Assembly (NCBI RefSeq): GCF_963921235.1 | Contig: NC_086097.1 | Span: 124,126,001-124,190,000 of the forward strand | Length of the DNA stretch: 64,000 nt | Direction: 5' to 3' | Origin: Mobula hypostoma | Lineage: Eukaryota | Part shown: one piece after another, positions 1,692 through 41,412 of the stretch | Position numbering within the stretch: position 1 is the stretch's first letter | Layout of the letters: every line of letters starts with the position of its first letter | Translations under genes and position numbers: made by a program | Notes under the pieces: generated by a model | Told to the model about the DNA's origin: nothing | Database searches by the model: none | Seen by the model: the letters and a program-made list of their open reading frames with translations, nothing else

Positions 1692-2348
1692 GTAAGAACT
1701 ATTGCATTAAATAAATATAAATATTTTGGGCAATTATTTTTATTGGACCTATAGACAACAATAAAGTAAATACCCTAAAACCTTAACACATAGGAGCAGA
1801 ATTGGGACATTTAGCCTGTCAAATCTGCTCTGCAATTCCATCATGGCAGATTTATTATCCTTCTCAACCCCATTCTCCCCATAACATTTGATACCTTTAC
1901 TAATCAAAAATCTATCAACCACTGCCTTAAATATATTCCAAATACTCAACCTCCACATCTGGCTAAAGAAATTCCTCCCTCAACGTCCACTCTATCTTTG
2001 CCTTTCAATATTTGTTAGGTTTCAGTGAGATTTCTTTCCCCCCCCCCCCAACCCCCACCATTCTTTGTAATACCTTTTGGCCAAGGAATTCCTTTGCACA
2101 AAAAACACCACCTTGTATTCTGCTTGTGTAGCCTACAGTCCAAAGGTACGAGTATTGAATTTTCCAGTTTCTAGTAACCCACATCCTCTTTCTATTTCCC
2201 ACCAGTCCACCCAGGTTCTCTCTCCTTTTCTTCACCTTTTGTTCAGTCCGTTCCCTTTACGGGCTTCATCTGCTCATCATTCCCTTCCTCATCATGTTCC
2301 AACTATCACCTCCCAGTTCCAATCCCACCTTTCTCCTGCACTGTAATA

Positions 2349-2918
2349 CACTCAGTGGCTACTTTATTAAGTACCTCTTGTACCTAATAAAGTGGTCACT
2401 GAGTGTATGTTTATGGTCATCAGCTACTGTAACCCATTCACTTGAAGGTTCAAGTTCACGTGTTGTGCATTTAGAGGTGTTTTCCTGCACACCACTGTAA
2501 CGTGTGATTAATTGAGTTACCATTGCCTTCCTGTCAGCTTGAAACAGTCTGGCCATTCTCCTCTGACCTCTCTCATTAACGTGGCATTTTCACCACAGAA
2601 CAGCCACTCACTGGATTTTTTTTTTTTGTTTCTCACACCGTTCTCTGTAAACTCTAGAGACTATTGTGCATGAATATCTCAGAAGATCAACAGTTATGAG
2701 ATCCTCAAACCAACCCATTCGGAACAACACTCATTCTGCAGTCAAAGTCACTTCTATCACATTTCTTCCCCATTCTGATGTTTGGTCTGAACAACAACTG
2801 AATCTGTTGACCATAACTGCATCCGTTTATGGATTGAGTTGTAGCCACATGATTGGCTGATTAGATATTTGGATTAATGAGCAGCTGTACAGGTGTGCCT
2901 AATAAAGTAAACACTGAC
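2349..2918 (-). mobile_element. Tc1/mariner deletion derivative, copy 1
   Basis: TA-flanked TIRs of consensus CACTCAGTGGCCACTTTATTAGGTAC at both ends, with a double-TIR hairpin at 2349-2405. Internal minus-strand transposase N-terminal remnant RMARLFQADRKAMVTQLITRYSGVQEN.SK.TTR. Confidence 0.85.
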
Positions 2919-3994
2919 TATAAACCAGCCATCTTTTCTCTTTCCCCTTTCCCCGCATCCAATCCTTATGTCGGGCCTCAACCCCAAGCATCAACATATT
3001 CCTTTTGCTTCCACAGATGCTGCTTGACCTAGTAAGTTCTTCCAGTAGTATGCTGCAGACTCCAGCATCTGAAATCTCTAGTTGCTCCAATACAAAACAG
3101 TATTGTGCCATTGGAAATCCAGTTAACTTAGAGTACAGCAATATAGCAATGCTCTCTGTATTTGTGAACACACATTGGAAAGTTCAGCACCTGACATTTT
3201 GTTTGCAGGAATTGTATCTTCCAAAAAAACATTTTGCTCTTAGAACAGTAACGAGGAGGAATTTCTTTAGCTTCAATGGTGAATCTGTGAAACTCGTTGC
3301 CACAGATGTCTGTTGAGGCCAATGCATTGGGTATATTTAAAGTTGAGGTTAATAGCTTCTTGATTAGTAAGGGTGGCAAAGGTTATGGGGAGAAGGCAGG
3401 AGAATGGAATTGAGAGAGTTGATAAATCAGAGATTATAGAATGGTGGAACAGACTCGATGGGCCAAATGGCCTAATTCTGCTCCTGTGTCTTCTGGTCAT
3501 TTCCAATGTAAAAATTCCTCAATGTTCATCAGCAATAATGTAATATGGAACATCTCCATTGCAATTTTTAACCTCATTGGCTTTTTTAAAAAAAAGTTCT
3601 TCACAAAATAGCCAGGTCTCACTAACCCCACTTCATCTAAAACTGCGCCACTTGCACGCCAACACTCAATTTGTGATCCTTTTCCTCACTTAGATATCTG
3701 GCCACCCAAAACTTCATTTATAATCTTGTGCATGCCCTGACTGCTTGCTTCCACAGATGTCAAAATCAGTCGCACTCTTTTCTAGTTCAGGATTTTATTC
3801 CAGTAGGCTACTGCTGATACATGCAATATCTTATAGTTTGCTGATTACAGCTGTATTAGACAGGTCACCTAGACTGCAGTCTCATGCAGAGCAGACTTTA
3901 TTTGCTTTTTTTCAGTCCACATGACACAGGTATTCCCCACAATTAAGGTTTTGCGAGATTGCAGTCTTAGATCTCCCTGGTAACCTCATCCCAA

Positions 3995-4762
3995 GTATAG
4001 GGAAGTGTATGGTCATGTACTTTGGTAGAAAGAATAAAGGCATAGACTATTTTCTAGCTGGGGAGCAAATTCAGAAATGGGAGGTGCGAAGGGATTTGAG
4101 AGTCCTAGTGCAGAGTTCCCTAAGGGTTAACTTGCAGGTTGAGTCGGTGGTAAGGAAGGCAAATCCAATGTTAGTATTTATTTTGAGAGGACTAGAATAT
4201 AGGAGTAAAGATGTAATGCATTGGTCAGACCGCATTTGGAGTATTGTGAGTAGTTTTGGGCTCCTTATCTAAGAAAGGATCTGCTGGCACTGGAGAGGGT
4301 CTGGAGGAGGTTGACGAGAATGAACCCAGAAATGAAAGATCGAACATATGAGGAGTGCTTGATGATTCTGGGCCTTTATTCACTTGAATTTAGAAGAACA
4401 AGGGGGAAATCTCCTACTGAATATTGAAAGACAGAGATAGAATGGACATGCGGAGGATGTTTCGAATAGGGCACTGCCCCAGAATACAAGCATGCCCCTT
4501 CAGAACAGATATTAGGAGGAATTTCTTTAGCTAGAGAGTGGTGAATCTGTGGAAGTCATTTACACAGATGACTGTGGAGGCCAAGGGTATACTTAAAGTG
4601 GAGATTGAAAGGTTTTTGATTAGTAAGGACATCAGAGATTATGAGGAAAAGGCAGGAGAATGGAGAATAGAATGAGAGGGATGATAAATCAGCCATGATG
4701 GAATGGCGGAGGAGACCCAGTGGGCTGAATGGCCGATTTCTGCTCCTATACCTTATGTTCTA
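3995..4762 (+). mobile_element. CR1 LINE 3' fragment
   Basis: ORF 4009-4272 is a decayed CR1 RT C-terminus (VMYFGRKN..DYFL.GE...RDLRVLVQSSL); the CR1 3'UTR follows. Confidence 0.85.
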
Positions 4763-6973
4763 AGCACTCCTTCCTTTGAGGGACTCCATGGTCCAGCTAT
4801 AGGTCCTGTTCTTACCACTGAGAGCATTATCACAATTCTTTCCAGTCATTGCAGTATAGAGTGAATTAAGAGCAAAATTGTTTGTAGCTAGAAGGACAAT
4901 GCTTTATTGCAGTAAAAGCTGGCTGCAGAAATCACATCTATGAGACTAAATGATGGCAGTCAATAAGAACAAAGTTAAAACAGACATAGTATAGTGTTAC
5001 ACAATGTAAGCTGATAACTACCCAATGACTACAACAAATAAAGATGTCAGCATTTTTGCAACTTCTACAAATAGCATTAAGGGGCCCACAATGCAGTTTT
5101 CATTCCATTAAAGTTTGGTAATGTAATTTGTAGACTTTCATATATAGTCATAGGCTTGAATCACCCAGCCCATTGTGGTGGGTGGTCATGAATGACTTGT
5201 GGTGAGGAACAACTTGCTGAACCTGCACCGGGTGCACCTCGCCCAGGAACTCTTTAAATGGGGAGGAATTGTTGTGGAAGTTGAGTTTATTTTTGATTTT
5301 TATTCATTTTAATTATTCTTTAAATGCAATTTTAAGAGATTCGGTTACATTTTCAGTTTTTGACGGTTTTGCAATCAGCTAAGCCAGAGAGCATGACTTG
5401 GCACATTGATATTTTTCCATTTGTTTTGCGGTTGGGGCTCTTTCTGGGATTGTTTGACTGCTTCTGCACAGGCTTGTGTGACTAAGCATGGGGCCAGTAC
5501 TTAACTTTGCAGATTGCCTAGTGTCAACTTACTGACACATTTTCCTTGTACATCAAATGAATTATCAGCAGAAGAATCTGGCTATATATACTCTTCTGAG
5601 GAGTAAATAAGAACACTTACAGGAAACTTAGAGATGGTTGGGGGGGGTGTGGGAGGAGGGGAGTTAACAGTCAGATCTAGACTGCTATTTTAAACAAATG
5701 CTTGTGGAATAAAGCTGAAAAAATCAACATGCCTGTAATTGCTGGACTTTAGAATGGGGGTGGGGATCTCATTGAAGCCTAACGAATATTGAAAGACCTA
5801 GATATAGTGGATGTGGAGAGGATGTCTCCTATAGTGGGGGAGTGTGGGACTAGATGACACAGCCTCAGAATACGAGGATGTCTCTTTAGAACAAAAATGA
5901 AGAGGAATTTCGTCAGTCAGAGGGTGGCGAATCGGTTGAATTCGGATGGCTGTGAAGACCAAATCATTGGGTGTATTTAAAGCGTTGGTTGATAGGTTCT
6001 TGATTGGTTCAGACCAAGTGAGATGAAGGGTCTTGGCCCAAAACATAGACTGTTTATTCCTCTCCATAGATGCTGCCTGACTTGCTGAGGTTCTCCAGCA
6101 CTTTATATAAGAGGGAAGATGTGTGCCACTAGTAGATCCCTGATGCAGGGTCTTGACCCAGAATATCACCATTCCTTTGCCTCCGCAGATGCTGCTTGAC
6201 CTGCTGACTTCCTCTAGTGGTTCAAATGTTGCTTCAGATTCCCAGATCCATGAGATTTATTTTATTTTATTTTATTGATATACAGCACAAAGTAGGCTCT
6301 TCCAGCCCTTCGAGCCATGCTGCCCAGCAATCCCCCAATTCAATCCTAGCCTAATCACAGGACCAATTAACCTACCAACTGGTACATCATTGAACTGTGG
6401 GAGGAAACCCATGCGGTCACAGGAAAAATATACAAACTCCCTACAGGCAGTGGCGGGAAGAGAAGTATTATTTAAAAGGGAATAAATTGCAGAACTCTGT
6501 AGTGCAGAGGAATTTGGAAAAACTGGTGCATGATTTGCATGAGTCTTTCCTGGAGGTCCAGCAAGTATTGGGAAAAATCTATTGTCTAATAATGTTAAAG
6601 TTCAAAGTATATGTATGTCACCATTTACAACACTGAGGTTTATTTTCTTGTGGGCACTTACAGTAAATAAATACAAGAAACACAATAGAATCAATTAAAG
6701 CCCGCACCCAACAGGATGGACAAACAATTAATGTGCAAAAGACAACAAACTGCAAATACAAAAAGAAAGAACAAAACAAAATAAGTAATAACTATTGAGA
6801 ACATGATGTGCAGGGTCCTTAAAAATGAATCCATAAATTGTGGGAACAGTTCAGTGATGGGGTGAGTAAAGTTATTCCCTCTGTTTCAAGAGTTGAAGGG
6901 TAGTAACTGTGGTGTGAGTCCTGAGGCACCTGTACCTTCTCCGATGGCAGCAGTGAGAACAGAGCATGACCTT

Positions 6974-7415
6974 TGTAAGAACAAACTGAAAAATTACACA
7001 GAGTTGTTTTTTGAAATAATGAGCAGTTTATTAAAAACTGGTGCACACCAGTAGATCAGTCAAAGCTGATCTACCTGAGCACGAAGTTGGTAGAGGTTTT
7101 ACATCCTCAATTGTTGAGATTACCAGTAAAACTATATTTTGATAATAGAATGGTGGCTACAGGAAGACTTAATTAAATAATGGACTAGGTTCTGATTACA
7201 GGGTAAAATGATTATCCATGGGTCTAACAGTAAATCCAGTTTTCTATTACAACAATGTAACATACTTAATGAAATTCCTGAACCTTGGATGTCATCACTG
7301 CTGCATTCCATGTCTCTATTTCAAGGCTTTGTCTGTGGTTCCCTGTTACCACATTAGCACAATCCATATCCCCATTTACTCGTTATTAGCCCTCACTATT
7401 CTTCCCCCTACAACA
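6974..7415 (-). repeat. 3' LTR of the ERV
   Basis: Starts TGT after a purine-rich stretch just downstream of the env stop, has AATAAA (7032-7027, minus) and ends ...TTCTTACA at 6974. No partner LTR is available to confirm the boundaries. Confidence 0.6.
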
Positions 7416-7463
7416 GTCTCCATTCTTAGCCCATGGCCTAAAATGGCTAATAAGGCCTAAAGG

Positions 7464-9590
7464 TTAGATCCCATAGTTTAGCCTACGCCAACGCTTTACC
7501 TGCCGTCACAGTACAAACACTAAAATAATAATGGTCATTAAACAATCAGCTGTATAACATCGATAATATGAGAGATGAGTCGAATCCAGTAGTGGGTTTG
7601 TGCATTCAAGGCCCAATTCCAAATATTGTACCAAAATGAGGGGTTCTCTACAGCTACCTTCTCATGATCCATTATCCTTAGCGACAGTGCATCCCATTTC
7701 TTAATGACTTCCTTATCCTGTTGGATGATCTTTTCCCATTCAGCAATGTAGAATGGGCAGTAGTTCTGTGGCTACATGCTTGTGCAATCCTTCGTCTGTG
7801 TTACTACCATAAATGGTAAGCTGCAGCTCCAGTGTCCCTTCTGCAACTGGCTTAGGCAAATTCTGTCCCACAATCATTAATTCAGTTGAGACATCACTGA
7901 TTGCCACTTTATAGCCAGTCAGATTGCATTGTAGCCGCCCCTTGTAATATGGTCTTGCTGATATTGCGGTGTAGTAGATGTTGTTCACCAAAGCATTCTT
8001 CAAGTTTTGTTATTAACTGGCAATGTGGACAGGGAACAGTTATTATATGCCGTTGTTCCTTTTCGCGCCTTGTAGCGCATTGGATGGCATTTTTGATTTT
8101 TTTTTTAATGAGGCTGAGTTGCTAGCTCGACGCTCAGCCCAGCATGGATGGAAAGCGTTCAAGGACCCAGCCGGATTCAAACTCCAGACTATTCACCTTG
8201 GCGTCTGGGGCTGATACCATATCACTGGCCAGCATAGTTATATATAGCAAAACCATATTCCGTCAGGCTTCTTCATACAGTCTGCCCTGGACATGCCCCA
8301 TTTGATGACGTTGTATCAAGCTCTTCCCCCGCCTTCCCCCAGACTAGTGTAACTCGATTGTGTAAACCAACATATCTTAGAGATATCCAAGTTCCTTCAT
8401 AGTGTTTTCCAACATTGTGCACTCTCATAAGAGAGTATGTGTAATTGCCACTGTGTCAGGGAATGTGGAGGACTGCTGCAATGTACAGTGGATCCCTCTC
8501 ATTTTCGAGCCTGCCATGACATCATTAGTCAGAGTGAGATCTGAATGTCGCACATTGGGGCGGCTTCACCCACCCATTCTTCCAGCTGGTTGTCTGATAT
8601 CCAATCCGGGACTCTGTGGCCTTCCAACTGCAGACTGTTTGTCCCAACTATAGACAAAAGCCAGGCAGCGTATGTTGTACAGAATACATTTTTTGTTTTA
8701 GCGTTGGGTGTCATTGTTCACTCTATCAACAACTTCATTAGTTATATCCTTTGATGACTACAATAACTGGAGAGTTTCCAACTACTTCCGTCCCTTGCTT
8801 CCCTATTCTATTAACTTGCCCCAAGTAATTTTGTTTTGTAATCCCCTTCAACTTCCGCTGGAGGGAACTGTTTTGCATATTTATTTCTGCTATATCTAAA
8901 GTATTGACTGTGGAGACCCCCGCTGAATATCCTGCTCCTAACACTCTATCAAGCCCCTTTTCCTTCTCCACCTTTCTGTCCTAATCTCACTATGAGTATC
9001 TTATCCATAGAGTAAACATTGGAAAAGGCAATTCGTACTGTCCTCGCAAAAGCTAGGGAATTATAAAGCAGTCAGGTTAAAGACTATCTGCATGTGGCTG
9101 TAGCCTGGTACTAGAGTAATCCTTTCGCCTGTATTTTCCAATACTAACCCTATAGCCTGTATGTCTCTGGCCCTCACTACACTGTAGTGCTCTTGTGGGA
9201 ACAGAAGGTCCTACAGTGATTGATTCCCAAATGGAGCAGCCCTGTCGCTTTGCCGTACTGGTGATTCATTGGGAATGGTTCATTAGTCCCGTGTCTTGGC
9301 ATGACAAATACAAACATGGGATCCCTCTCTCGCACACCAGATTTCCCCTGAGTGCTGTGCAGTTTTCATATGTCCATTTCACATCACTGCATGCTATCAT
9401 GTCGTCCCTGTTGAATTGCATAGCATTTATATGCCCCACAGCTGGTCGTTCTTTGTTACTCACTCAGTTTAGAGTCTGCAGTTTACTTGCTCTTCAGAGA
9501 TGTCTCAAAAGATTATCACATTCAATTATCCAAATTCTTCTGAGTGTAGTTTGTCAAATTCCATGTTTTCTGTTCCTGTGGAAATATGTT
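7464..9590 (-). pseudogene. env: Retroviral env pseudogene (class I fusion protein)
   Basis: Furin site RRKR (8967-8956), then GL..LGAGYSAGVSTVNTLDIAEIN (fusion peptide and heptad start, one frameshift). Trp-rich juxtamembrane SFWYNIWNW...HYWIRLISHII, hydrophobic TM (VIQLIV/LMTIIILVFVL) and basic tail RQVKRWRR. Many stops and frameshifts. Confidence 0.72.
8050..8233 (-). mobile_element. tRNA-derived SINE inserted in env
   Basis: Minus-strand A-box/B-box-like head (tggccagtgatatgg...gagtttgaatcc), internal A-run, and imperfect flanking duplication (agttattatat/agttatatat). Confidence 0.7.
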
Positions 9591-9847
9591 TGCATTGTTA
9601 AATCATTCCTGCCCAAGGTATCTTTTCAGGTGGAACCAGTGTTTCCAATTTGGCCCTTCTTTAGTTTTCACTAGGGCACACATTTCTCCAGTCAGGAATA
9701 CTATAAATAATCCCATCCATCTGGGTTGTAGTTCCAAGTTTCGCTAGTACAACTATAACCATTATTTCTGGCAGGTTGCCCTTCACTTGGGCATTCTTGC
9801 GTTCGCAGTCCTGTACTCTTTGTCTATCAATGAGTTACCCATTTAGA

Positions 9848-11485
9848 TAAGACCATGACACCATAAGACATAGGAGCAGAATCATTGAGTCTGCTCTCCA
9901 TCATGGCTGATCCCGGATCTCATTCAACCCCATACACCTGTCTTCTCACTGTAGCCCTTGATACTCCAACAAATCAGGAATCTATCAACTTCCACTTTAA
10001 ATATAGCCATGGACTTGGCCTCCACTGCTGTCTGTGGCAGAGCATTCCACAGATTCATCACTCTTTGGCAAAAAAAAATTACCCCTTACATGTGTTCTAA
10101 AAGGTCACCCCTCAATTTTGAGGCTATGTCCTCTAGTTCTGGATACCCCTACCACAGGGAACATCCTCTCCACATCCGCCTTATCTAGTCCTTTCAACAT
10201 TCAGTAGGTTTCCATGAGGTTTCCATGTATTCTTCTAAATTCCAGTGAATACAGACCCAAAGCTGCCAAATGCTCCTCGTGTGTTAACCCCTTCATTCCC
10301 AGAATCACCCTCATGAACCTCCTCTGGACTTTCCAATGACAATACATCCTTTCTGAGATAAGGGGCCCAAAACTGTTTGACAATACTGCAAGTGCAGGCT
10401 GACTAGTGTCTTATAAAGCTTCAGCATTATCCCCTTGTTTTTATATTCTAATCCCCTTGAAATAAGAGCCAATATTGCATCTGCCTTCTTTACCACAGAC
10501 TCAACCTGTGAATTAACTTCCTGGGAGTTTTGCACGAGGACTCCTAAGTCCCTTTGTACCTCTGATGTTTGAATTTTCTCCCCATTTAGATAATAGTCTG
10601 CACTATTGGTCCTTTTACCAAAATGCATTATTGTGCATTTCCCAACATGTATTCCATCTGCCTCTTTTTTTTCCCATTCTTCCAATTTGTCTAAGTCCTG
10701 CTGCAATCGCATTGCTTCCTCAGCACTACCTACGCCTCCACCTATCTTCGTATCATCCACAAACTTGGCCGCAAAGCCATTAATTCCATTATCTAAATCT
10801 CTGACAAACAATGTGAAAAGTAGTGGTCCCAATACTGACCCCTGAGGAACACCACTAGTCACTGGCAGCCAACCTGAAAAGGCCCCCTTTATTCCCACTC
10901 ACTGCCTCCTGCCTGTCAGATATTCCTCTATCCATGCCAGTCTATTTCCTGTAATATCATAGGATTTTATCTTGTTAAGCAGGCTTATGTGAGGCACTTT
11001 ATCAAATGCCTTCTGAAAATCTAATTAAATGATATTTGTTGCCTGTCCTTTGCCCACCCTGCTTGTTACTTCCTCGAAGAATTCTAACAGATTTGTCATG
11101 CAAGATTTCTTTTTCCAAAAATCCTACTGACTTTGACTTATTTTATCATTAGTCTACAAATACCCCAAAAACTCATCCTTAATAATGGACTCCAACACTT
11201 TCTCAACCACTGAGGTTAGGCTAACTGGCCTATAATTTCCTCTCTTTTGTCTTCCTCCCTTCTTAAAGAGTGGAGTGACATTTGCAGCTTCCTAGTCCTC
11301 CTGGACCATGCCAGTGATTCTTGAAAGATCATGACTAATGCTTCCATTATCGCTTTCAGGACTCTAGATGTAGTCTGGTCTAGGTGACTTATCCACCTTA
11401 AGACCTTTTGAGTTTGCCTAGCACTTTTTCCTTTATAATAGCAATGGCATTCTCTCCTGCTCCCTGACACCCACAGACCTCTGGC
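9848..11485 (-). mobile_element. 5'-truncated CR1 LINE inserted into the ERV integrase
   Basis: RT motifs SGVPQGSVLGPLLF and KFVDDTK (ORF 10311-10898); tail repeats (cataagac) near 9848-9872. Confidence 0.92.
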
Positions 11486-12394
11486 ATGCAGATGAACAGC
11501 TAACCCCTGTACAGGCTGGGTAATCTGGTCCTTACTATGGCAGCTCTTCAGTCCTCCTGTGATCATATCCTCTGGTAGTTGCATAGCCCATCCTGTCATT
11601 AATTCAAAAGCAGTAAATCTTGTCCCATGAGCAGGGATCACTCATAGTTTCATCAACACTGTTAGTAATACCCTAGACCAACTTGTCTCTGTCTCCATTA
11701 AAGCCTTCATTAGGCTCCCTTTTAAGGTGCATTTCATTCTCTCAGCCATGCCAGAGTTCTGAGGTCAGTCTGGAATGTGCAGCATCTGTTTCTCTGTTGG
11801 TGTAAAAAGTTCTTCCACCCTGGACTCTGTAGCGCTATTCCCTACTGCCTTCTGAGGTACCCGCTGCTGTCTCGTTACAGGGTGGAGATTGTGAATCTTT
11901 ATTACGAGTCCCATACTCATCAGCTGCATCAGCCCAATCGTCCTAATCTACAACATGTTCTGGGGGTGCGCATCTTACACTACCTATCATCTGCCTTGAA
12001 ACTGGGGAGATCTGAGCTCGTTTTGCAAGCACTATTCTGTGGTAATTGCTCATTAATGCTGTTACTTTTACTACAGCCTTTTCATATTTGCCCTTCTCTT
12101 GTCCCTTCTACCAAGCAATTTGTTCAGGGTTGTTCCATTCAGATTGTAACCCTTCTTTACCATATTTTGTATCAACTAACGATTAGGAGCTCTACCGTCT
12201 GTCTGGGGGAATCCTTCTGATTCTTACACTTCTTTCTCAGTTTTCTCCAGCTTCCCTTTTTCTCCCCTGGCCATATGTTCGTGTCATTTCCAGCTCCCAC
12301 GTCTATATCTCAAATAGTTGGTTAGTCAATCAGTTTCCCAAATCAATTGCAACCTATAACTGCCTGGACCCCATCTGCTAGTTACTAACCTTAC

Positions 12395-12720
12395 AATGTC
12401 TGGACATCTTACAGTGTGCACTTCCCACAGATATAGTCAACTGGGACACCATGAGGTTCTCTGTCTTCCCACATCTTGCAGGAAGAGCATTCTTCTGCCC
12501 TGACCGCCATTTCATCTACACATTCAAAGGTCACGATTAATAGGAAAATAAAAACTCTACCCTGATTCTGACCTGCTATCACCCGTGCCTCCTCACCCAA
12601 GACTCCCCAGCCAAAGCCTAGCCACCTCAGCACTGACCCACTTTCACAATAGCCACTCCACATGACCGTACCATCTATTTATTGGCAAAACACATGGCAA
12701 CTCAGCCAGTCTGAAATCCT
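12395..12720 (-). mobile_element. CR1 5' end/ORF1 zinc-finger fragment
   Basis: ECSSCKMWEDREPHGVPVDYICGKCTL is homologous to the ORF1 N-terminus of the full-length CR1 at 25269-25730. Confidence 0.8.
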
Positions 12721-13169
12721 CTGCTGTACGGGATACTGCAATTGGAGAACAAGCTGTCAATAGCAAATAATGTTTTAAAAGCTGCTGGCTTCTCCCCTCT
12801 GTTGCTCCAGCTGCTGAACTGGAGAAAAACAAGATCAGTTTTAATCTTTTCCATGAATTTAAATTGTTGCATTTTTGGGTCTAAATGATAGTTTGTTTCA
12901 AAAACTATTACCTTTTTGACACAGGCAGATCTCTGGCCCTAGCTGTGCCCTCTGTCTATGTCCATTTATTGAATTCTGGAAAAGGAGCCTTTGTAGTGTA
13001 TGGCCTAAGACCCTGCTACACTTGGTTATTCCAGGATCCAAAGGTCCAGCAGTATCTGGCCCAATGTGGCATATAGTAGTGAGACAGTCAGTCATGTTAC
13101 TTGTCAGCTGGATTATGCTGAACCTGGCCTGCCATGCAGAAACGCTGAATGTTGTTACATCTACCAATA

Positions 13170-13878
13170 TAATGCCAGAATCAGGTTAATTATCACTGAC
13201 ATATATCATGAAATTTGTTGTTTTGTGGCAGTAGTACATAAAATATACTATAAATTATAATTTAAAAATGTATAAAAGTAAATAGCGCAAAAAGAAAGCA
13301 AAAATAGTGAGGTAGTGCTCATAAGTTCATTATCTGTTCAGAAATCCAATGACAAAATGGTAACAAGCTGTTCACAAAACTTTGAGTGTGTGTCTTCAGG
13401 CTCCTGTACCGCTTCTCTGATGTGTAGTAATGAGAAGGGGGCATGTCTTAGGTGTTGGGGCGGGGGGATCCTTAATGACAGATGCCACCATTTTGAAGCA
13501 TCACCTTTTGAAGATGTCCTTGATGGTGGAGAGGTTAGTCCTCATGATGGAACTGGTTGAGTCTACACTCCTCTGCAGCTTTTTCTGATCCTGTGCAGTG
13601 GCCCCTTCCCCTTCATACCAGACAGTAGAATGCTCTCCATGATACAGAAACGTACTAGTCTTTGGTAACATACTAAATCTCTTCAAACTCCTAATGAAAC
13701 ATAGCTGCTGGTGTGCCCTCCACATAATTGTGTCAATATGTTGGGCTCAGGTTAGATCTTCAGAAATCTATCCAGTCCTGTCCTCTCGATGACAACTGGT
13801 GTGTGAAGTCCGCAATCAGATGTTGAGTGCAAGGTTGTTGTTGTGTCACCACTCAACTAGCTGATCTATCTCACTCCA
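13170..13878 (-). mobile_element. Rex1/Babar-type LINE 3' fragment
   Basis: RAHQQLCFIRSLKRFSMLPKT...VWY...TAQDQKKLQR.VDS.SSI...LSTIKDIF is the typical Rex1/Babar RT C-terminus. Related fragments lie at about 6590-6973 (-) and 15800-16200 (+). Confidence 0.8.
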
Positions 13879-20515: not shown

Positions 20516-20718
20516 GATAACTAAAGCATTAATAGAAGAAGATGGATCAAAATGGAGAGAAAAGCTGTCACCAATCCCAGTGGTCCCTGTTTCAGCACAG
20601 ATCCAAAGAGGGGAAGACAATTCCATAACCACGGTAATTGGAAACAAGTCTCAAATTACCAGTGGAAGTGAAGATCAAGATCCAGGCTGCAGCAATGGTA
20701 CAACACATCCAGACTTGG
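20516..20718 (+). CDS. SPAG1: SPAG1 coding exon (post-TPR helix and linker)
   Basis: ttttag acceptor and G|gtaaga donor; 203 nt, phase-compatible with both neighbours. Encodes ITKALIEEDGSKWREKLSPIPVVPVSAQ..., the conserved WREKL.PIP motif of the SPAG1/TOMM34 family. Confidence 0.92.
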
Positions 20719-20968
20719 GTAAGAAAATGACTATTTAATATACAAAAATATTTGATTTTTGAAAATTTTGATTTTTCAAACATTCCATATCATAGCTTGC
20801 CTACAGAGCTACAGTAAGCGTTACTGATGGGACAAAAGCTGTTGCATTTGTGTATGGTGACCTTCAGTTAATGACTACTAGTCAAATTGTTAACCGGAGG
20901 GACCTTGGATTTGTAGCGGTGAATCTGAGTCAGTGTAGCTAATCATATGGGTCAGGTTGATCTGTAGT

Positions 20969-21790: not shown

Positions 21791-24700
21791 TAGAACCATA
21801 GAAACTACAGCACAGAAACAGGCCCTTTGGCCCTTCTTGGCTGTGCCGAACCACTCTCTGCCTAGTCCCACTGACCTGCACACGGACCATATCCCTCCAT
21901 ACACCTCCCATCCATGTATCTGTCCAATTTATTCTTAAATGTTAAAAAAGAACCCGCATTTACCACCTCGTCTGGCAGCTCATTCCATACTCCCACCACT
22001 CTCTGTGTGAAGAAGCCCCCTCTAATGTTCCCTTTAAACTTTTCCCCCCTCACCCTTAACCCATGTCCTCTTGTTTTTTTCTCCCCTTGCCTCAGTGGAA
22101 AAAGCCTGCTTGCATTCACTCTATCTATACCCATCATAATTTTATATACCTCTATCAAATCTCCCCTCATTCTTCTACGCTCCAGGGAATAAAGTCCTAA
22201 CCTATTCAACCTTTCTCTGTAACTGAGTTTCTCAAGTTCCGGCAACATCCTTGTAAACCTTCTCTGCACTCTTCCAAGCTTATTTATATCCTTCCTGTAA
22301 TTTGGTGACCAAAACTGAACACAATACTCCAGATTTGGCCTCACCAATGCCTTATACAACCTCATCATAACATTCCAGCTCTTATACTCAATACTACGAT
22401 TAATAAAGGCCAATGTACCAAAAGCTCTCTTTACGACCCTATCTACCTGTGTCGACAGTTTTAGGGAATTTTGTATCTGTATTCCCAGATCCCTCTATTC
22501 CACTGCACTCCTCAGTGCCTTACCATTAACCCTGTATGTTCTATGTTGGTTTGTCCTTCCAACGTGCAATACCTCACACTTGTCAGTATTAAACTCCATC
22601 TGCCATTTTTCAGCCCATTTTTCCAGCTGGTCCAAGTCCCTCTGCAGGCTCTGAAAACCTTCCTCACTGTCTACTACACCTCCAATCTTTGTATCATCAG
22701 CAAACTTGCTGATCCAATTTACCACATTATCATCCAGATCATTGATATAGATGACAAATAACAATGGACCCAGCACTGATCCCTGTGGCACACCACTAGT
22801 CACAGGCCTCCACTCAGAGAAGCAATTTTCTACCACCACTCTCTGGCTTCTTCCATTGAGCCAATGTCTAATCCAATTTACCACCTCTCCATGTATACCT
22901 AGCGACTGAATTTTCCTAGCTAACCTCCCATGTGGGACCTTGTCAAAGGCCTTACTGAAGTCCATGTAGACAATATACTGCCTTCCCTTCATCCACTTTC
23001 CTGGTAACCTCCTCGAAAAACTCCAACAGATTGGTCAAATATGACCTACCACGCACAAAGCCATGTTGACTCTCCCTAATTAGCCCCTGTCTATCCAAAT
23101 GCTTGTAGATTCTGTCTCTTAGTACTCTCTCCAATAACTTACCTACTACTGACGTTAAACTCACCGGCCTATAATTTCCCGGATTACTTTTTGATCCTTT
23201 TTTAAACAACGGAACAACATGAGCCACTCTCCAATCCTCCGGCACTTCACCCGTAGACAGCAACATTTTAAATATTTCTGCCAGGGCCCCGCAATTTCAA
23301 CACTAGTCTCCTTCAAGGTCCCGGGGATTTATCCACTTTAATTTTCCTCAAGACAGCAAGCACCTCCTCCTTTTCAATCTGTACAGTTTCCATGGTCTCA
23401 CTACTTGATTCCCTCAATTCCATAGATTTCATGCCAGCTTCCTTAGTAAATACAGACACAAAAAACCTATTTAAGATCTCCCCCATTTCCTTTGGTTCCA
23501 CACAAAGCCGACCACTCTGATCTTCAAGAGGACCAATTTTATCCCTTACAATCCTTTTGCTCTTAATATACTTGTAAAAGCTCTTTGGATTATCCTTCAC
23601 TTTGACTGCCAAGGCAATCTCATGTCTTCTTTTTGCCCTCCTGATTTCTTTCTTAAGTATTTTCTTGCACTTCTTATACTCCTCAAGCACCTGATTTACT
23701 CCCGTTTCCTATACATTTCATACAACTCCCTCTTCTTCTTTATCAGAGTTGCAATATCCCTTGAGAACCAAGGTTCCTTATTCCTATTCAATTTGCCTTT
23801 AATCCTGACAGGAACATACAAACTCTGCACTCTCAAAATTTCCCCTTTGAAGGCATCCCACCTACCAATCACATCTTTGCCAGAGAACAACCTGTCCCAA
23901 TCCACGCTTTTTAGATCCTTTCTCATTTCTTCAAATTTGGCCTTCTTCCAATTCAGAACCTCAACCCTAGGACCAGATCTATCCTTGTCCATGATCAAAT
24001 TGAAACTAATGGCGTTATGATCACTGGAACCAAAGTGCTCCCCTACACAGACTTCCGTCACTTGCCCAATTCGTTTCCTAACAGGAGATCCAATATTGCA
24101 TGCATCCCCTCTAGTTGGTCCCTCTATATACTGATTTAGAAAACTTTCCAGAACACATTTTACAAACTCTAAACCATCTAGACCCCTAACAGTATGGGAG
24201 TCCCAATTAATGTATGGAAAATTAAAATCCCCGACCACCACAACTTTATGTTTCCTGCAGTTGTCTGCTATCTCTCTGCAGATTTGCTCTTCCAAGTCTC
24301 GTTGACTATTGGGTGGTCTGTAATACAATCCCACTAATGTGGCCATACCTTTCCTGTTTCTCAGCTCCACCCATAAGGACTCAGTAGACAAGCCCTGTAA
24401 TCTGTCATGCCTGAGCACTGCTGTAATATTTTCCCTAACAAGCAATGCTACTCCCCCACCTTGCATTCCCCTGGCTCGATCACATCTGAAACATCAGAAC
24501 CCTGGAATATTAAGCTGCCAGTCCTGCCCCTCCTGTAGCCAAGTTTCACTAATTGCTACAACATCATAATTCCACGTGTCAATGCACGCCCTCAACTCAT
24601 CCGCCTTCCCCGCAATACTCCTAGCATTGAAATATATACACCTCAGAAGATTTTTACCACCACTCACAACCTTTCTATCAGCGGATTTGCTTAAACTTTC

Positions 24701-25963
24701 AATATCATTTATCTTCACCCCAGCCACACTGTCAGCTCTGGCACTCTGGTTCCCATCCCCCTGCAAATCTAGTTTAAAGCCTCCCCAATAGCACTAACAA
24801 ACCTCCCTGAAAGGATATTGGTCCCCCTGTGGTTCAAGTGTAACCCGTCTCTCTTGTACAGGTCCCACCTGCCCCAGAGGAGGTCCCAATGATCCTGAAA
24901 TCTGAAACCCTGCCCCCTACACCAGTTCCTCAGCCACTTGTTCCTCCTCCAGAGCATCCTATTCCTACCCTCACTGGCACCTAGCACAGGTAGCAATCCT
25001 GAGATTACCACCCTGGAGGTCCTGCTTTTCAACTTCCTACCAAGCTCTCTATACTCACTGTCCAGGACCTCTTCACTCTTCCTTGCTATGTCATTGGTGC
25101 CTATGTGCACCACAACATCTGGCTGGTCACCCTCCCACTTCAGAATGTCATGCAATCGATCAGAGACATCCTTGACCCTGGCACCTGGGAGGCAACAAAC
25201 CATCCTGGATTCTCTGTCACGACCACAGAACCTCCTATCTGCACCTCTAACTATTGAGTCCCCTATCACTACCACTCTCCTCTTTCTCCCCTTCCCTTCT
25301 GCACTGCGGAGCCAGACTCAGACTGGAAAGGCCTGCTACTGCAGCTAATCCCAGGTAAGTCATCCCCCCCAACAGTATCCAATGCGGTATACTTGTTGCT
25401 GAGGGGAATGGCCACAGGGGAACCCTGCTCTGCCTGCCCTTTCCCCTTCCCTCGCCTGACAGTGACCCAATTTCCTGTCCTCTGCTCCTTTGGCGTAACT
25501 ACCTCCCTGTAGCTACGATCTATAATCTCCTCATTCTCCCGAATGATCCGCAGGTCATCCAGCTCCTGCTCCAGTTCCCTAACGCGGTTTGTCAGGAGCT
25601 GCAGCTGGATGCACTTCTTGCAGGTGTCGTTGTCAGGGACACCGGAGGGCTCCCTGACTTCCCACATCCTGCAAGAGGAGCATTCCAACATCCTGCCTGG
25701 CATTCTCTCTACGCTAGACAATCTGAGCAAAATACTTACTGGAACCTACCCTGGCCTGTGCCTGTTCTCGGCGAAGCCTGTTTGAGCCAAAGCCGTCCCA
25801 CTCTGACTCAGTCCACTCTGACGATGTCCGCTGTATATGGTGGTCTGCTTTTTAAACCTTGGCGTGCTACGTCACGCGCCTGCGCAGTGCAGACCCTTCT
25901 CCCCGAGCAGTTCTTTAAAAAAAAATGACTTTTTCGACCCGAAATTCTTCCGCTCACTTCTTC
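21791..25963 (-). mobile_element. Near-full-length CR1 LINE (ORF1 zinc finger/coiled coil/SGNH esterase; ORF2 APE-RT), frameshifted
   Basis: ORF1 pieces CSSC...CKKC, VIGDSIVRG and VHIGTND...DGLHLN. ORF2 pieces NARS, SETWL, GDFN, SDH, NYRPVSLTS, SGVPQGSVLGP and KFADDTK. CpG-rich 5'UTR and tttctatggttcta tail. Confidence 0.96.
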
Positions 25964-26881
25964 AGCTACTTGCTTCTACTCCCATTCAGTGGAAAGTGTC
26001 ATCAACAGTGCCATCAAGCAACATTTACTCACCAAAAACAAGCTAACCATTTTGGGATTCAAGGAACAAAGATCAACTTTATGTCCCATATGCATTTACA
26101 TGTATTAGGAATTTGCTGTGTGTATTGGTGCAACATACAACAATAAAACAACAATCCACAATTATAAAGAATAAAAATGAGTTTAAAAAATAAAGTTAGA
26201 GGTTAAAGTACAGATATGGAATAAAATGTGCATAAATGCATTGATAACGGCATGTATTTACAATGTAAGTAGCATTATGAAAAGTGGTTTATCGAACTTT
26301 AGGCCTCAACACTGTCCTGGTTGAAAAGTGAATGATAGAGGTTAATTTCCAGGTGGAAGGGACTGCCCGTAATATTTGACTCCATTTAACTCAGTGCAGA
26401 TCATGCACTGAATGCTGGTAAAGCTAAAGTTCAATGTTAAGAAGTATTCCAATGGTCTGACATACTTTGCTCAAAGGAAGATGCTCATGGTTTTTGCTGA
26501 ATGTGGTTTCTTAGGCCCAACCATCTTTAGCTTCTTCACCTTCCTTCTACCATAAGATCTGAAATGGGATGTTCACCTATGATTGCAATTATGTCAATAT
26601 CTCAGAAAATGAAATAGTCCATGCCTTTGTACAGAAGATAGAGACAACATAAAGGCACAGACTGAGAAGTGACGAGTAACATTTGCACCACAAAAATGCC
26701 AAGCGTTGACCTTCTCCAACAACAGGAATAACAGCACCTATACACCATGTTCAGTGCCGTTACCAGTACTGTCACTTAAAAAAAACATTTAACTGATACA
26801 ATCATATAAAAACTATAGCTACACAACCAGGTCAGTGCCTCAAATGACACTCAAAAGCCTTTTATCTTCAAGAGACAAGAA

Positions 26882-27180
26882 TAGATTCGATTAGCTATAT
26901 TTGTCACGTGTACATTGAAACATACAGTGAAAAGTGTCGTTTGCCTCAAATCAAATCAGCATAAATTGTGCTGGGGGCAGCCCACCACACTTCTGGCGCC
27001 AACATAGCAGGGCCACAACTCACAAACTCAAACCCGTACATCTTTGGAATGTGGGAGGAAACCCAAGTGGTCACAGGGAGAACATACAATTCCTTACAGA
27101 CGGTGGCGGGAAATGAATCCCGACCGGTGATCGCTGCCGCTATAATAGTGTACACTGAACGCTACGCAACCGTGCCACCT
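26882..27180 (-). mobile_element. V-SINE (representative copy)
   Basis: tRNA-like head (ggtggcacggttgcgtagcg...ggattcatttcc) plus V-domain core (ttgtatgttctccctgtgaccacttgggtttcctcccacattccaaaga). Similar copies at about 6255-6460, 14430-14670, 16325-16560, 31005-31222, 32395-32708, 36120-36360, 37665-37878, 46055-46283, 51158-51465 and 54572-54845. Confidence 0.8.
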
Positions 27181-27295
27181 TTAACTCAAATGGGATGGAT
27201 TTGCCAGCATGAATACAGCTTCAATAACATTCATGGAGCTTGGTACCATTCAGGATGAAGTAATCTGCTTAATCAGCACCCAATCCACCACTCTA

Positions 27296-27849
27296 CATTC
27301 AGCGGCCGTTTATTTGGTACAAGAGGTACCTAATAAAATGACCACTGAGTATATGTTTGTGGTGTTCTGCTGCTGTAGCCCATCACTTCAAGTTTTGATG
27401 TGTTGTGCATTCAGAGATGCTCTTCTACCCACCACTGTTTGGAACACATGGTTATTTAAGGTACTGTCACTTCCTATAATGTTGAAGTTTAGTATTTGGC
27501 CATTATCCTTTGATCTCTCTCATTAACAAGGTATTTTTGCCCACAGAACTGCTGCTCACTGGATGTATTTTATTTTTCACCCCATCCTCTATAAATTCTG
27601 GAGACTGTTCTTGAAAATCTGAGGAGATCAGCGATTTCTGAGATACTGAAAACACTCTGTCTGGCACCAACAATCATTCCATGGTCAAAGTCACATAGAT
27701 CTCATTTCTTCCCCATTCTGACGTTTGGTCTGAACAACAACTGAACCTCTTGACCAAGTCTGCATGCTTTTCTGCATTGAGTTGCTGCACTTGGTTGACT
27801 GATGAGATATTTGCATTAACAAACAGGTGTACCTAATAAAGTGACCAGT
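27296..27849 (-). mobile_element. Tc1/mariner deletion derivative, copy 2
   Basis: Colinear with 2349-2918 along its whole length, including the terminal double-TIR hairpin at 27296-27351. Confidence 0.85.
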
Positions 27850-27927
27850 ATATATATCATGCTTCTCAAATCTTTGTCAATAAAATCTTACTTTACAAGT
27901 TCATTTTTTTGTATAAACTTCTTATAG

Positions 27928-28069
27928 GTAAAGATGTAGAAGAACGTTTTATGTCCTTAAAGCAGCAAGGGAACGGTTTTGTGAAAAAGACACAGTACAA
28001 GGAAGCCATCACAAAGTATAGTGAATGCCTAAAACTGAAATCCAATGAATGTGCAATTTACACAAACAG
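27928..28069 (+). CDS. SPAG1: SPAG1 coding exon (start of last TPR block)
   Basis: cttatag acceptor and AG|gtaagg donor; 142 nt (2+138+2). Encodes KDVEERFMSLKQQGNGFVKKTQYKEAITKYSECLKLKSNECAIYTNR with the carboxylate-clamp K..GN and N. Confidence 0.93.
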
Positions 28070-29321
28070 GTAAGGAGCACGGTTACAAGGATTTGTTTAA
28101 ACACAACTTGCATGTATTCTTTTTTTATAAAGAGCATTCCTGTAGGAGCTGACTCATAAGAATAGCATGAAAACTTAGTTTAACACACCCAACTGTTTGA
28201 AATCTGTCCAGCCCTGGGGGATTTTTAGGTGGATTAGAAAATGAGTTTAAGGTTAGTCAGCTGGGATTCTCGTGATTACTCCTTTTCATACAAGTCATTT
28301 TTTCCCTTGACTATTTCAATTTTGAGGCACTTAATGGAGGTACTGAGTCTCCTATTCAGTTACATTTAGTGTATACAAGATCAGGAATGTAGCAATGTCA
28401 GGCTGGGTAACAGCTTCTAACTAACTGTTAAGACTTCTTAACACCCTGCTGCGGTTCAGCACACATGTACATTCTGTCTAAATGCCCTGCCGCCCCCACT
28501 TCCCAACTCACAGACACACTCTCATCCTGCACTGGTCACTTTTCATTTTTATGCTGCTATTTCACATATTTATTGGACTGCTTGCTTCCTCATAATAGTG
28601 CCGGTAACATTATACTCTCTTACCTCATATTTTATATCAACCCACAATCTTCAGGCCACGGCACTCAGGAACTTGTGCTAATATTTTTGTGTGATTGCTT
28701 GTGCTGGATCATAACTATATGTACTGCATTTTGTACCTTGGTCCCAGAGGAACTATGTTTCATTTAGCTACATGTATGTGTATGTTTGAATGATGAATAA
28801 ATTGAGCTTGATCTGAAAGGATTATTCTCAATGATTATCTATTCCATTGCTTTTGGAAAGGCCTCTATTCCTTCTCCTACTTAGTAATGTTTAAATGCTT
28901 TAGTTAGGCAAGCTTATAAAGGAAAAATTGTTCTTTAATTGATACTAAGTCTTTGAGCAACCGTTTGGTTTTAATGGTGTTAATGCCAAAGCTAAATGAT
29001 ATGTGATGTAATTGTGTGTCAGAATGAAAGATGGGGATGACGGTCTGTTGTAGCATGCCTGTATTCTGGAATGAAAGCAAGCCAACCTTGATAACAAAGG
29101 CCTGTCTATCAAAAAGAAAGACAAAGGGGTTCTTATAAAGGTGTGTGTAAAAATACAAATTCACTGTTTAAAACATGAGTTTTAAAGGTCCTCTTGAAAA
29201 TGCAAACTCAATGCTTAAAACATTAATATTAGCTAAGAATTTCTTAAAATCTTTCAAGCCATACTACAGAAGAGTAATAAAGTTAAATAAAGACTAATCT
29301 ATTCTTCTTTATTCTTCCTAG

Positions 29322-29448
29322 AGCATTATGTTATCTGAAACTTAGTCAATGCAAGGAGGCTGAAGACGATTGTAACATAGCTCTGCGGGTGGAACCCACA
29401 AATATAAAAGCATTGTATCGAAGGGCTCTGGCTTATAGAGGATTGAAG
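29322..29448 (+). CDS. SPAG1: SPAG1 coding exon (TPR)
   Basis: ttcttcctag acceptor and AAG|gtaagg donor; 127 nt. Encodes ALCYLKLSQCKEAEDDCNIALRVEPTNIKALYRRALAYRGLK with the clamp K...R. Confidence 0.93.
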
Positions 29449-30344
29449 GTAAGGCACATCAAATAAATACTGGAATTTTATCCACTACTGGCATTAATAG
29501 TTTTGCTGCTATCTGGAGATCTTGGAGGCAGAAATAGATCATCACTACCCTTTTACTCATCGATTGACGTTTATGGCCCAATTAAGCAGTCTTGCTCCTT
29601 AATTCAAGGTCAATCTGATTTTTAAAAAATTCTGCAAGCATGAATCATGCTTGAAGTAGACATTTTCACAGAAATAGACATTAGGAACCTTGAACAAGTA
29701 ATGCTAGTGTCTGAAGAGTGAAAAATTATGGGTTTGAGGGATGAGAGGGCAAGAAGCAGACTTTCAAATTAAAGAATATAGCAAAGGGATTATAATTGAA
29801 TTGAGACTCCCTTTTGGCAGGTTGAGCAATATACATTACTCAGATGCTGCAACTACATTAAGAAGCAGTCCCAGTTACCGGTAGGTTCAGGGGGTCTGAT
29901 CAGATATGCCTACCTGTGGTCCAAGAGCAGTTACTCCTATACATACAGACACTTGTGCTTACACTGACATTCACTTTCTTGACAGATGGTTGACAATTGG
30001 GTTTGGACCTTGCCTATTGTTTACTTATCTCCTAGTCAGCTCCAGTTAGCTGAGCAAATCCTCTGCCGTTTTACTGAACCTAGTGTCAGAGTAGAATCTT
30101 CAACCTGTGATCAGAATTTGAGGGAAAGCAGCAAGATAAATGGAGACTAACTTGGCTGTTAGTTCACCTAGATTAGCTTTTGCTTCTCATGATATCAAAG
30201 TGCCTGTTTTACTCCACACCCATAATCAATGAATTCTACAGGAAAAACCTGTTTGTTCATCTTGGCACTCTAAGTTCTAGGTGGACAAGTATTGTTCCAC
30301 TTCTTTTGATGCTATCCCATTTCAGATATCTAGATACATTCTTT

Positions 30345-30800
30345 TCTGAGGATCATCATCTTGTGGTGGAGAAACTTGAGTTCTTGAGATTCCAAGTGCA
30401 TTGCCATCTGGTGTGTAGCCATCTGATGCTTAACTCCTGGTAGGGTCATCCATGGTGTTAAGGTCAAGGGGAAGGTTTCAGACAAAGAGCAATACAGTGG
30501 TGGAGCTGGTGGAAGATGTTGACACATCACAATGGCAGTGAAGGTGGAGGAAGGCTGCAGTAGTGAAGGGTCCACAATCGTCTTGCATTTCATGCCACTG
30601 GACCTTGACCCCGATCAGCTGCCTGTGAATGAGCCTTCCCACATTAACAAAGACATGCACAGTCTTCCTCCATTAAGGGAATCGACTCTAACATCCCAGT
30701 TATGTGGATCCCTGATCGGCCTCTACAGCCACCTGAGGACCCACCAATAGGCAACCTCTTAGGAAAATATCATACCTGACTTGAGTGATCTCACTACTAT
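30345..30800 (+). mobile_element. Non-autonomous RTE-derived element, second copy
   Basis: Leader ggatcatcatcttgtggtggag...ggtagggtcatcca...cagacaaagagc. Ends with the RTE C-terminal remnant CGSLIGLYSHLRTHQ and a ctactat tail. Confidence 0.72.
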
Positions 30801-31650
30801 TGAGATGCTTTGCAACAATGGAATTTACTGATACTTTTGTAAACTGAATTTTGTGGCTCTGGTTACTTCACCAGAATTATTTAATTCTGCACTGCTATTG
30901 TGAATATGTTTCTAGGCGTCTTTTTGTAGGAGGAGGAACGTGGTCAAAGGAAGCATACCAGATAAATGTATTTGCACCTGAGTCACTTGATAATTTAAGA
31001 TGTAGGGTGTCACGGTAGCAGAGCAGTAATGCTATTACATCACTAGTGACCTGGATTCAATTCCCGTCGCTGTCTGTATGGAGTTGTGTTTCTACTGGAT
31101 GCTCCGGTTTCCTTCTGCATCCCAGAGACCTTCGGATAGTGGGTCAATTGGTGACGTGGTATAACTGGGCGGTGCAGGTCTTTGGGCTGGAAAGGCCTGC
31201 TACTGTACAGTATCTGTAAATATTTCACCTGCATGTAGTGATAGGAAAATGCAAGCTACAGTCGCTAAAGTAGGTTATTGTCAAAATGTATCTAGTCTTG
31301 CAACTAAATTGGAAAACCAATTCAACTATACTTTTATGGGTAGAGTTAGGTGGAAGAGTTGAGGTCCCATTAATCAATTACATTAAGATACTTCCATTTA
31401 ACAAATTGTAAACACAAGAGATTCTGTATATGCTGGAAATCTAGAGTAACACACATGTCATTCCCCATTCTGCCTCCTAGCTCTCACTTCATCCCACCTT
31501 CCTCCCCTACCCATCTTCCTCTTACCTAGCTTCACCTATCACCTTCTTCTAACTTGTAATCTTTTCCCTCCCACCCCACCTTCATATTCCAGCGTCTTCC
31601 CCCTTTCTTTTCAAATCGTCAACTCTTTATCCCTCTCCATAGATGCTGCC

Positions 31651-32036
31651 GGGGTTGGCAGATGGGGCTCGTCAGCTGTGGCTAGCAGCTCATCTAGGAG
31701 AAGGAAGTCTCTAATCAAATCTCCGCTGCCTTGCAACTATGCCTACTCATGGGGAAGACTTTGGGAGTAAACACTGAGGGAAAAACCTGGAGCTGGAGTC
31801 CCTAAGGCAGTCCTACATTGAGTCCAGTGGTGACTGTCAACCCCTGCGATGCTGCTGGTACCAAACTGTATTGGTTGCTGCCTTTCCTTTTGGTTCATCA
31901 GATGCGTGGAGAGGGGGAGCTTGTTACATGGGCAACAGCTTGCTCTCCATAATGTACTGCCCAGTCTTGCGTATCTAGATAGCGAGAATATAATATCCAT
32001 GGTCAACTCTGACCAATGGAGGCCTCACCTCACCTC
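31651..32036 (+). mobile_element. Short retroposon (probably RTE-derived) inserted into a Penelope terminal-repeat remnant
   Basis: 10-bp TSD agatgctgcc (31641-31650, 32037-32046) and (CCTCA)3 tail. The ctaggagaaggaa...aaatc motif resembles RTE leaders. Confidence 0.7.
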
Positions 32037-37453: not shown

Positions 37454-37627
37454 AACTACACCGCCAGTATCAAAGATCTCAATAGATTACTGGAGCTTGA
37501 CTCAAATGTTACTGAAGCACGGAAAGAATTGCTGGAGGTGTCTGAAATTCTGGAAAAATTAGGGAGTGGATCCTTCTCCAAGACCAGCAGTCAAGAAAAG
37601 CAGAGAAAAAATATCCAGATACAGGAG
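37454..37627 (+). CDS. SPAG1: SPAG1 coding exon (end of TPR, RKxIxIxEV motif)
   Basis: ttttctccag acceptor and GAG|gtatgt donor; 174 nt, phase 0-0. Encodes NYTASIKDLNRLLELDSNVTEARKEL...QRKNIQIQE. Confidence 0.92.
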
Positions 37628-39839: not shown

Positions 39840-40275
39840 GACCGCAAGTCATTTGGACCATCGAGTCTGCTCTGACATTCCATCATAGCTGATTTATTAC
39901 ATCTCTCATCCCTTTCTCCTGCATTCTCCCCATAACCTTTGATACCCTTACTAATCAAGAACCTATCAATCTCCACTTTAGATATACCCAATGAGTTGGC
40001 TTCCACGACCATCTGTGGCAATGAATTCCACAGATTCACCACCCTCTGGATAAAGAAATTCTTCCTCATCTCTGTTCTACATGGACACACTTCTATTTTG
40101 AGGTTATGCCCCCTGGTACTAGACTCCCCCACTATTGGAAACAACCTCTGAATATCCACTCTATCTAGGTCTTTCAGTATTCAGTAGATTTCAATGAGAT
40201 CCACTCCTGTTCTAAACTCCAGTGTGTAAAAGGCCCAGAGCCTTTTACACTCCTCGTATGTTAACTCTTTCATAA
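39840..40275 (-). mobile_element. CR1 3' fragment
   Basis: RLFPIVGESSTRGHNLKI...RKNFFIQRVVNLWNSLP. Further short CR1 3' ends lie at about 1790-2030, 3225-3500, 5745-6010, 43180-43550, 44770-45470, 47405-47575, 50535-50790, 51715-51930, 53803-54010, 54855-55425 and 56925-57455. Confidence 0.85.
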
Positions 40276-41225: not shown

Positions 41226-41412
41226 TAACAAATTAACAAATTTGCAAATTTCACAACAATGATAGCAAACCTTATTCTGATTCTGACCTCCCCCAAAATC
41301 CAATACCCGAGCTTCAAAAAAAATTACAAAATTATTGTTTACAGCTTTTCTCTTCGTTTGGCGCTAATATGTAGTGTTGCTGCCGAGTTATTCCCATCTT
41401 TATCTCTTCAAG

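Follow-up and report, generated by a model that had tools for sequence, protein, structure and literature searches.

The endogenous retrovirus (ERV) remnant at 7050–12330 on the minus strand of the 64-kb stretch of DNA analysed here (hereafter the window) probably derives from a canonical, non-lokiretroviral fish retrovirus whose env encoded an F-type class I fusogen; the remnant occupies an intron of a TPR/RPAP3_C gene in antisense orientation. The remnant is that of a long-dead provirus with a decayed env, and the copy is functionally inert now. By all motifs tested, the env remnant is not gamma-type. With the F-type readings taken jointly, an envelope that is non-gamma and worked like F is likely, and the F-type reading of this particular env is plausible but unproven, its support coming from motifs compared by eye and not from a database match. 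Comparisons with published elements refer to the accessible parts of the cited sources.

The ERV is placed in an intron because it is flanked by plus-strand exons of one gene, which encode TPR at 1540–1689 (E 2.8e-4) and RPAP3_C at 41368–41838 (E 1.7e-18); we take this gene to be SPAG1. On the minus strand, the element runs from a K/E/R-rich piece through one half of the integrase core, a LINE, the integrase C-terminal domain (CTD), and env with a SINE in it, to a polypurine tract (PPT) and an LTR-like end. The features of the element and its host gene, in window coordinates, are:

1540–1689, about 20520–20720, and 41368–41838, plus strand: host-gene exons, TPR and RPAP3_C (middle exon by eye only)
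11790–12330, minus strand: K/E/R-rich sequence of the low-copy family, probably a piece of gag (gag label by eye only)
11490–11790, minus strand: integrase core, C-terminal half (PQNSG...ER motif)
9846–11490, minus strand: 5′-truncated LINE, presumably of CR1 type, inserted in the integrase (RVT_1, E 1.9e-10)
9618–9845, minus strand: integrase linker and MLV-like CTD (MLVIN_C, E 0.048, under the curated cut-off)
9151–9590, minus strand: signal-like start (uncertain) and Cys-rich extra N-terminal module of about 120 codons, recognised by length compared with lokiretrovirus (loki) Env
9073–9150, minus strand: 26-residue strand motif (G-x-V-L ... Q-I-V-F-x-L), in by-eye, unscored register with the first loki Env motif
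8956–8967, minus strand: furin site RRKR, from the sequence
8891–8941, minus strand: fusion-peptide-like G/A/S-rich stretch LGAGYSAGVSTVNTLDI, with a G-x-S-x-x-N-x-x-x-I pattern
7772–8890, minus strand: remnant of a long, Cys-containing C-subunit ectodomain over three frames, with an HR1 candidate at about 8890–8790
8050–8233, minus strand: SINE inserted in env
7589–7771, minus strand: membrane-proximal part with an amphipathic stretch (HR2 candidate) and a Trp-rich segment at 7613–7636; 77-codon open stretch
7480–7588, minus strand: TM-like stretch and short basic tail (tail by eye), interrupted by stops and by a change of frame near 7540
7396–7409, minus strand: PPT, read directly from the sequence
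7050–7395, minus strand: LTR-like 3′ end, starting with TG immediately past the PPT; far edge uncertain, about 7042–7060

The succession of integrase core, integrase CTD, env, PPT, and LTR-like end favours the proposed origin. The provirus would have lost its pol core by deletion as well as its 5′ LTR, and would have received the LINE in its integrase and the SINE in its env. The element shows no protease, RT, or RNase H (Pfam was blank in three frames of 11400–12600), and Rfam returned 0 matches over 6500–13500. The LTR-like end reaches a summed depth of 1,700–5,600 (bins 7022–7443), compared with 14–28 in the single-copy flank at 12719–12900, and contigs across 7058–7402 match it at about 85% identity; this depth, about tenfold or more above that of env, suggests a pattern of solo LTRs. 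A second copy of this end is absent from the 64-kb window, the 5′ LTR is missing, and a sequence scan found neither AATAAA nor TATAA in the LTR-like end. Two small inverted repeats occupy its outer edge (7039–7072). At the other end, the piece at 11790–12330 contains 26% K/E/R in the frame with the fewest stops, resembles the env bins in depth, is covered by up to 12 contigs per site, and has no Pfam match.

Other repeats accompany the element. The LINE in the integrase has a depth of over 200,000 and many copies within the window. A separate LINE at 21862–25745 (minus strand) is near full length, with long open stretches, an RT match at E 9.1e-27, and, by eye, an ORF1-like part with zinc-finger-like and esterase-like motifs; it is younger than the ERV because it is more intact. 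Near the upstream end of the ERV remnant, 12417–12492 gives a short match of 74% to the 5′ ORF of this LINE at 25610–25685. Further retroelement-like open stretches lie at 42297–42788 and 48444–49199, and these we take to be RTE-like and Penelope/GIY-YIG-like, respectively.

Depth and contigs were obtained from 4 of the 24 listed runs, which represent organisms A, B, C, and E in four studies; part of 7100–9800 is contained in 20 of the 24, with a word share of 0.89–0.94 in organism A, which may be the source of the window, and about half in organism B. No RNA run is listed as a carrier of this part, which has no bearing on expression. Depth is no copy number here, and copies were counted at an identity of at least 80%. 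Outside the SINE, the env bins have a summed depth of 30–290 compared with 14–28 in the single-copy flank, up to 11–13 contigs occur at one site, and paralogous env pieces in the same run are about 83–84% identical (57 differences over 8431–8768 and 55 over 9350–9694). The ERV is a member of a low-copy family because its env depth lies above that of the flank, several contigs occur per site, and such paralogues exist. The locus itself is common to the four organisms: organism B carries it with 13 differences and 5 gap letters over 8129–8907, SINE included, organism C with 23 differences over 8335–8859, and organism E with 26 differences over 7690–8107, where the SINE junction is bridged by 58 letters; a contig of organism E extending into the flank has 49 differences over 12070–12876. 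Since the same locus is present in B, C, and E, the ERV insertion and the env SINE predate a split of about 6% divergence.

All env landmarks are minus-strand features, and each has a frame of its own. The first-pass annotation of this DNA had placed RRKR about 210 codons into env, followed by a G-rich peptide and, with a SINE at 8050–8233 subtracted, by about 400 codons up to a Trp-rich segment and TM, and had seen neither CX6CC nor an immunosuppressive domain (ISD); each of these claims held. From 9590 to the end of RRKR there are 212 codons, LGAGYSAGVSTVNTLDI follows at 8941–8891, and, with the 184 nt of the SINE subtracted, RRKR is separated by 378 codons from the Trp-rich stretch and by 394 codons from the TM-like stretch. 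The SINE is evident from a summed depth of 24,000–40,000 in bin 8077–8287 compared with 30–290 in the adjoining env bins, from an imperfect target duplication of about 12 nt, and from tRNA-like boxes seen by eye. CX6CC, CX5-7CC, and ISD patterns occur 0 times in each of the six frames of 7300–9900, an absence that weighs less in a decayed copy. With 212 and 394 codons on the two sides of the site, the layout differs from that of gamma-type Env, which has a long SU and a short TM ectodomain.

Decay is visible throughout the env gene. The three minus frames of 7450–9600 contain 43, 36, and 36 stops, the longest open stretch spans 89 codons, and a frame break must lie between RRKR and the fusion-peptide-like stretch at 8941–8891 because their frames differ. 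The HR1 candidate is weak, with at best 5/10 hydrophobic a/d heptad positions; the TM-like stretch at 7588–7541 attains a best 19-residue hydropathy of only 1.56 and has stops at its end; and Pfam gives no family match for the membrane-proximal part at 7589–7771. A furin site with G-[LVIT]-S-x-x-N-[STA]-x-x-[LIV] within 60 nt occurs once in the 64-kb window, at env, whereas 1000 first-order Markov simulations, each of 2127 nt, produced it 0 times, although this pattern was devised after viewing env and loki Env, so that the chance test is post hoc.

Searches for an F-type or other relative of env were blank. Three whole minus frames and 11 env pieces gave 0 env-type matches in Pfam, the only matches being off-target at E 0.014–0.13, and four env queries against PDB sequences gave 0 relevant matches; a porphyranase (E 0.23) was rejected as irrelevant. 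An 80-aa open env stretch had 0 matches among 1.84 billion protein representatives; in a 5.8-billion protein collection, 0 of 5731 candidates of near length and 0 of 1141 of shorter length matched; and the ESM Atlas, viral contigs, and metagenome contigs were blank for env. A single-sequence model of the 80-aa stretch shows one helix at residues 30–53 with a mean pLDDT of 50.5, and fold searches of BFVD and PDB with two low-confidence env models (pLDDT 50.5 and 37.8) yielded no match at E<=0.001. The extra N-terminal module, considered as a candidate Ig fold and modelled at low confidence (pLDDT 37.8), matched nothing in Pfam or PDB, and its fold search was equally blank. These blank results are weak because the gene is broken and each query covered just a single frame or a short fragment of it.

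By eye, the ERV env resembles loki Env, which its authors matched to PF00523 at E 2.2e-7 (PMC7947760). In the five Env proteins of the accessible supplement of that source, read by eye, the layout of signal, RXKR, fusion peptide, coiled coil, and TM is also that of the ERV env, in which signal and coiled coil are weak; the 26-residue stretch at 9150–9073 is in register with the motif after the loki signal peptide; the G-x-S-x-x-N pattern follows RXKR in four of the five and in the ERV; CX6CC is absent from all five, as in the ERV; and the C-subunit measures about 400 residues by eye, compared with 394 codons. These Env motifs and this C-subunit length would suit membership in the lokiretroviruses proper; the ERV would then be their first representative from a cartilaginous fish, its integrase having diverged and the N-subunit of its Env being longer. 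Such an origin would also accommodate an MTG-x-x-M-x-LP stretch of the integrase that is common to loki and the ERV, and the thin sampling of the loki screen, which lists only six chondrichthyan assemblies, none with what appears to be the mark of a positive species (PMC7947760). It is nevertheless quite unlikely. Lokiretroviruses are unreported in Chondrichthyes in the accessible part of that source, and RXKR lies at about 115–125 residues in the five loki Env compared with 212 here, which makes the N-subunit of the ERV about 90 residues longer. The distance from 9560 to the strand motif is 137 codons compared with about 30 in loki Env, that from the strand motif to RXKR is 65 residues compared with about 88, and the Trp-rich pre-TM segment of the ERV is unseen in the five. 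Furthermore, three integrase motifs (LPxHLLY, K[LIM]SPV[AV]Y, and WVHxNQ), which are our by-eye reading of the published sequences and not the authors' definition, occur in 14/14 loki Pol ends compared (14 of the 24 consensus sequences in PMC7947760, one Env row and three RT rows being excluded) and nowhere within the window. The integrase linker measures about 78 codons, whereas a by-eye count for Loki-Bsp gives 91. The CTD weakly resembles that of MLV, and PDB offers a single match for it, integrase p46 of 2m9u (E 0.67), which aligns collinearly across the PRW...W..H motif. The MTG stretch is non-discriminating because it is also present in CmiERV scaffold 2 of the snakehead-retrovirus (SnRV) clade. 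The loki-like lineage proposed in the first-pass annotation was thus not sustained, given the integrase without the three motifs, the weakly MLV-like CTD, and the longer N-subunit, whereas its F-like env was upheld in layout and in two motifs that agree by eye with loki Env, and not in any profile, sequence, or fold match to a fusion protein. The preferred reading of a canonical, non-loki lineage, suggested by the sequence of the integrase, has points against it as well: the missing loki motifs may reflect decay, and the element is without RT and therefore permits no tree.

All integrase matches are sub-threshold, the core pointing to foamy virus and the CTD to MLV. The core piece has no Pfam match, and its best PDB matches are foamy virus integrase (E 0.039–1). 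With its best value of 0.039, and with a foamy Env that is built around the F core and likewise contains RRKR (Fernandez et al. 2024, PMC11468914), a foamy-like ERV (spuma, clade Tu) can be envisaged in which the large receptor-binding insertion of Env had been lost or was never acquired, but it is a very doubtful source, since the few retroviral integrases in PDB mean that the core match does not place the lineage, the CTD match is MLV-type, and neither Pfam nor PDB gives a foamy Env match. Foamy Env would share with the ERV an F-type core, RRKR, and a long C-subunit; in foamy Env, however, RRKR comes only at 567–570, preceded by a long leader and by a receptor-binding domain (225–555) inserted before the furin site (PMC11468914), whereas the extra module of the ERV precedes the F2-like strand, the site lies at about 212, and the env contains no such long leader and large domain. 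This difference in furin-site position excludes a standard foamy Env. Since foamy Env itself has the F fold (PMC11468914), a match to it would leave an F-type reading intact, and the refutation by such a match that the first-pass annotation proposed is ill-posed. Paramyxo/pneumovirus F (PF00523) resembles the ERV env in that its N-subunit is short, its C-subunit long, and its fusion peptide placed at the site of cleavage, but has no detectable match to it in any search. The F-type Env of errantiviruses, which are invertebrate Ty3/gypsy elements, has the same short-N/long-C layout, and the accessible part of the source found no intact vertebrate homologues (PMC13524379). An improbable but less remote reading is that of a non-gamma Env of another fold, or of a gamma-type Env decayed beyond recognition, with the F look being a coincidence of short motifs; the database and fold searches, all blank, and the post hoc motif test are in keeping with it. 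About 394 codons from the cleavage site to the TM-like stretch, with low-copy family depth throughout except at the SINE, count against it; a gamma TM ectodomain is about half of that length. Two separate motifs in loki order and register also count against it, while gamma-type Env in six cartilaginous fish (bioRxiv 2021.11.23.469661) and a gamma-type env in CmiERV scaffold 2 lend it some support. The SnRV clade (clade Huo, class III), the other affinity suggested in the first-pass annotation and still a candidate, is a canonical retroviral clade that occurs in all major vertebrate groups (PMC6001957) and includes CmiERV lineage I of the elephant shark (PMC4422223). Its member CmiERV scaffold 2 (PMC4422223), in hand translation, has an env with ISD and CX6CC and a WxHxNQ-type integrase end, all absent from the ERV here; it shares the MTG stretch and, weakly and by eye, its gag resembles the upstream K/E/R-rich piece. 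It was rejected as a member of the same family as the ERV on account of its gamma-type env (ISD and CX6CC). As CmiERV scaffold 2 is gamma-type, env type would vary within the SnRV clade if F-type members exist.

For the preferred reading, an F-type fusogen of a canonical retrovirus, a mechanism can be proposed by analogy. The env product would have begun with a signal and the extra module, about 120 residues long, followed by an F2-like part of short length and RRKR; beyond the cleavage site would come the fusion peptide, HR1, the long ectodomain with its Cys residues, HR2, the Trp-rich segment, and TM. Furin cleavage at RRKR would free an N-terminal fusion peptide, as in class I fusogens (PMC11468914); HR1 would then form a trimeric coiled coil onto which HR2 folds back (PMC11468914), and collapse of the HR1/HR2 hairpin would fuse the membranes as in F proteins. 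The extra N-terminal module would most likely be the receptor binder because retroviruses are without a separate attachment protein.

In published schemes, orthoretroviral Env is sorted into gamma and beta types (bioRxiv 2021.11.23.469661), and F-like Env is treated as a mark of lokiretroviruses (PMC7947760), to which foamy Env was added by structure (PMC11468914). A search of the openly accessible literature found no fish ERV outside the loki and foamy groups for which an F-type Env is described, and the accessible parts of PMC2717909, bioRxiv 2024.03.17.585361, PMC11521997, PMC13709493, and PMC8227577 do not address F-type Env in fish ERVs. The present copy is a poor witness, being broken throughout, without RT, and without a database match. 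We therefore suggest only tentatively, as a possibility that is less likely than its denial, that the remnant represents an undescribed old lineage of canonical retroviruses in cartilaginous fish, equipped with an F fusogen and its own N-terminal receptor-binding module. A canonical-type integrase beside an F-type env, fixed before the four organisms split, would be a dated instance of a third envelope type in fish retroviruses and would bear on the question of which fusogen retroviruses began with. If true, the published idea of unrelated env sources for loki and canonical retroviruses would be weakened, and F-type Env would be the ancestral retroviral envelope, to which varied binding modules were added, and not a speciality of loki and foamy viruses.
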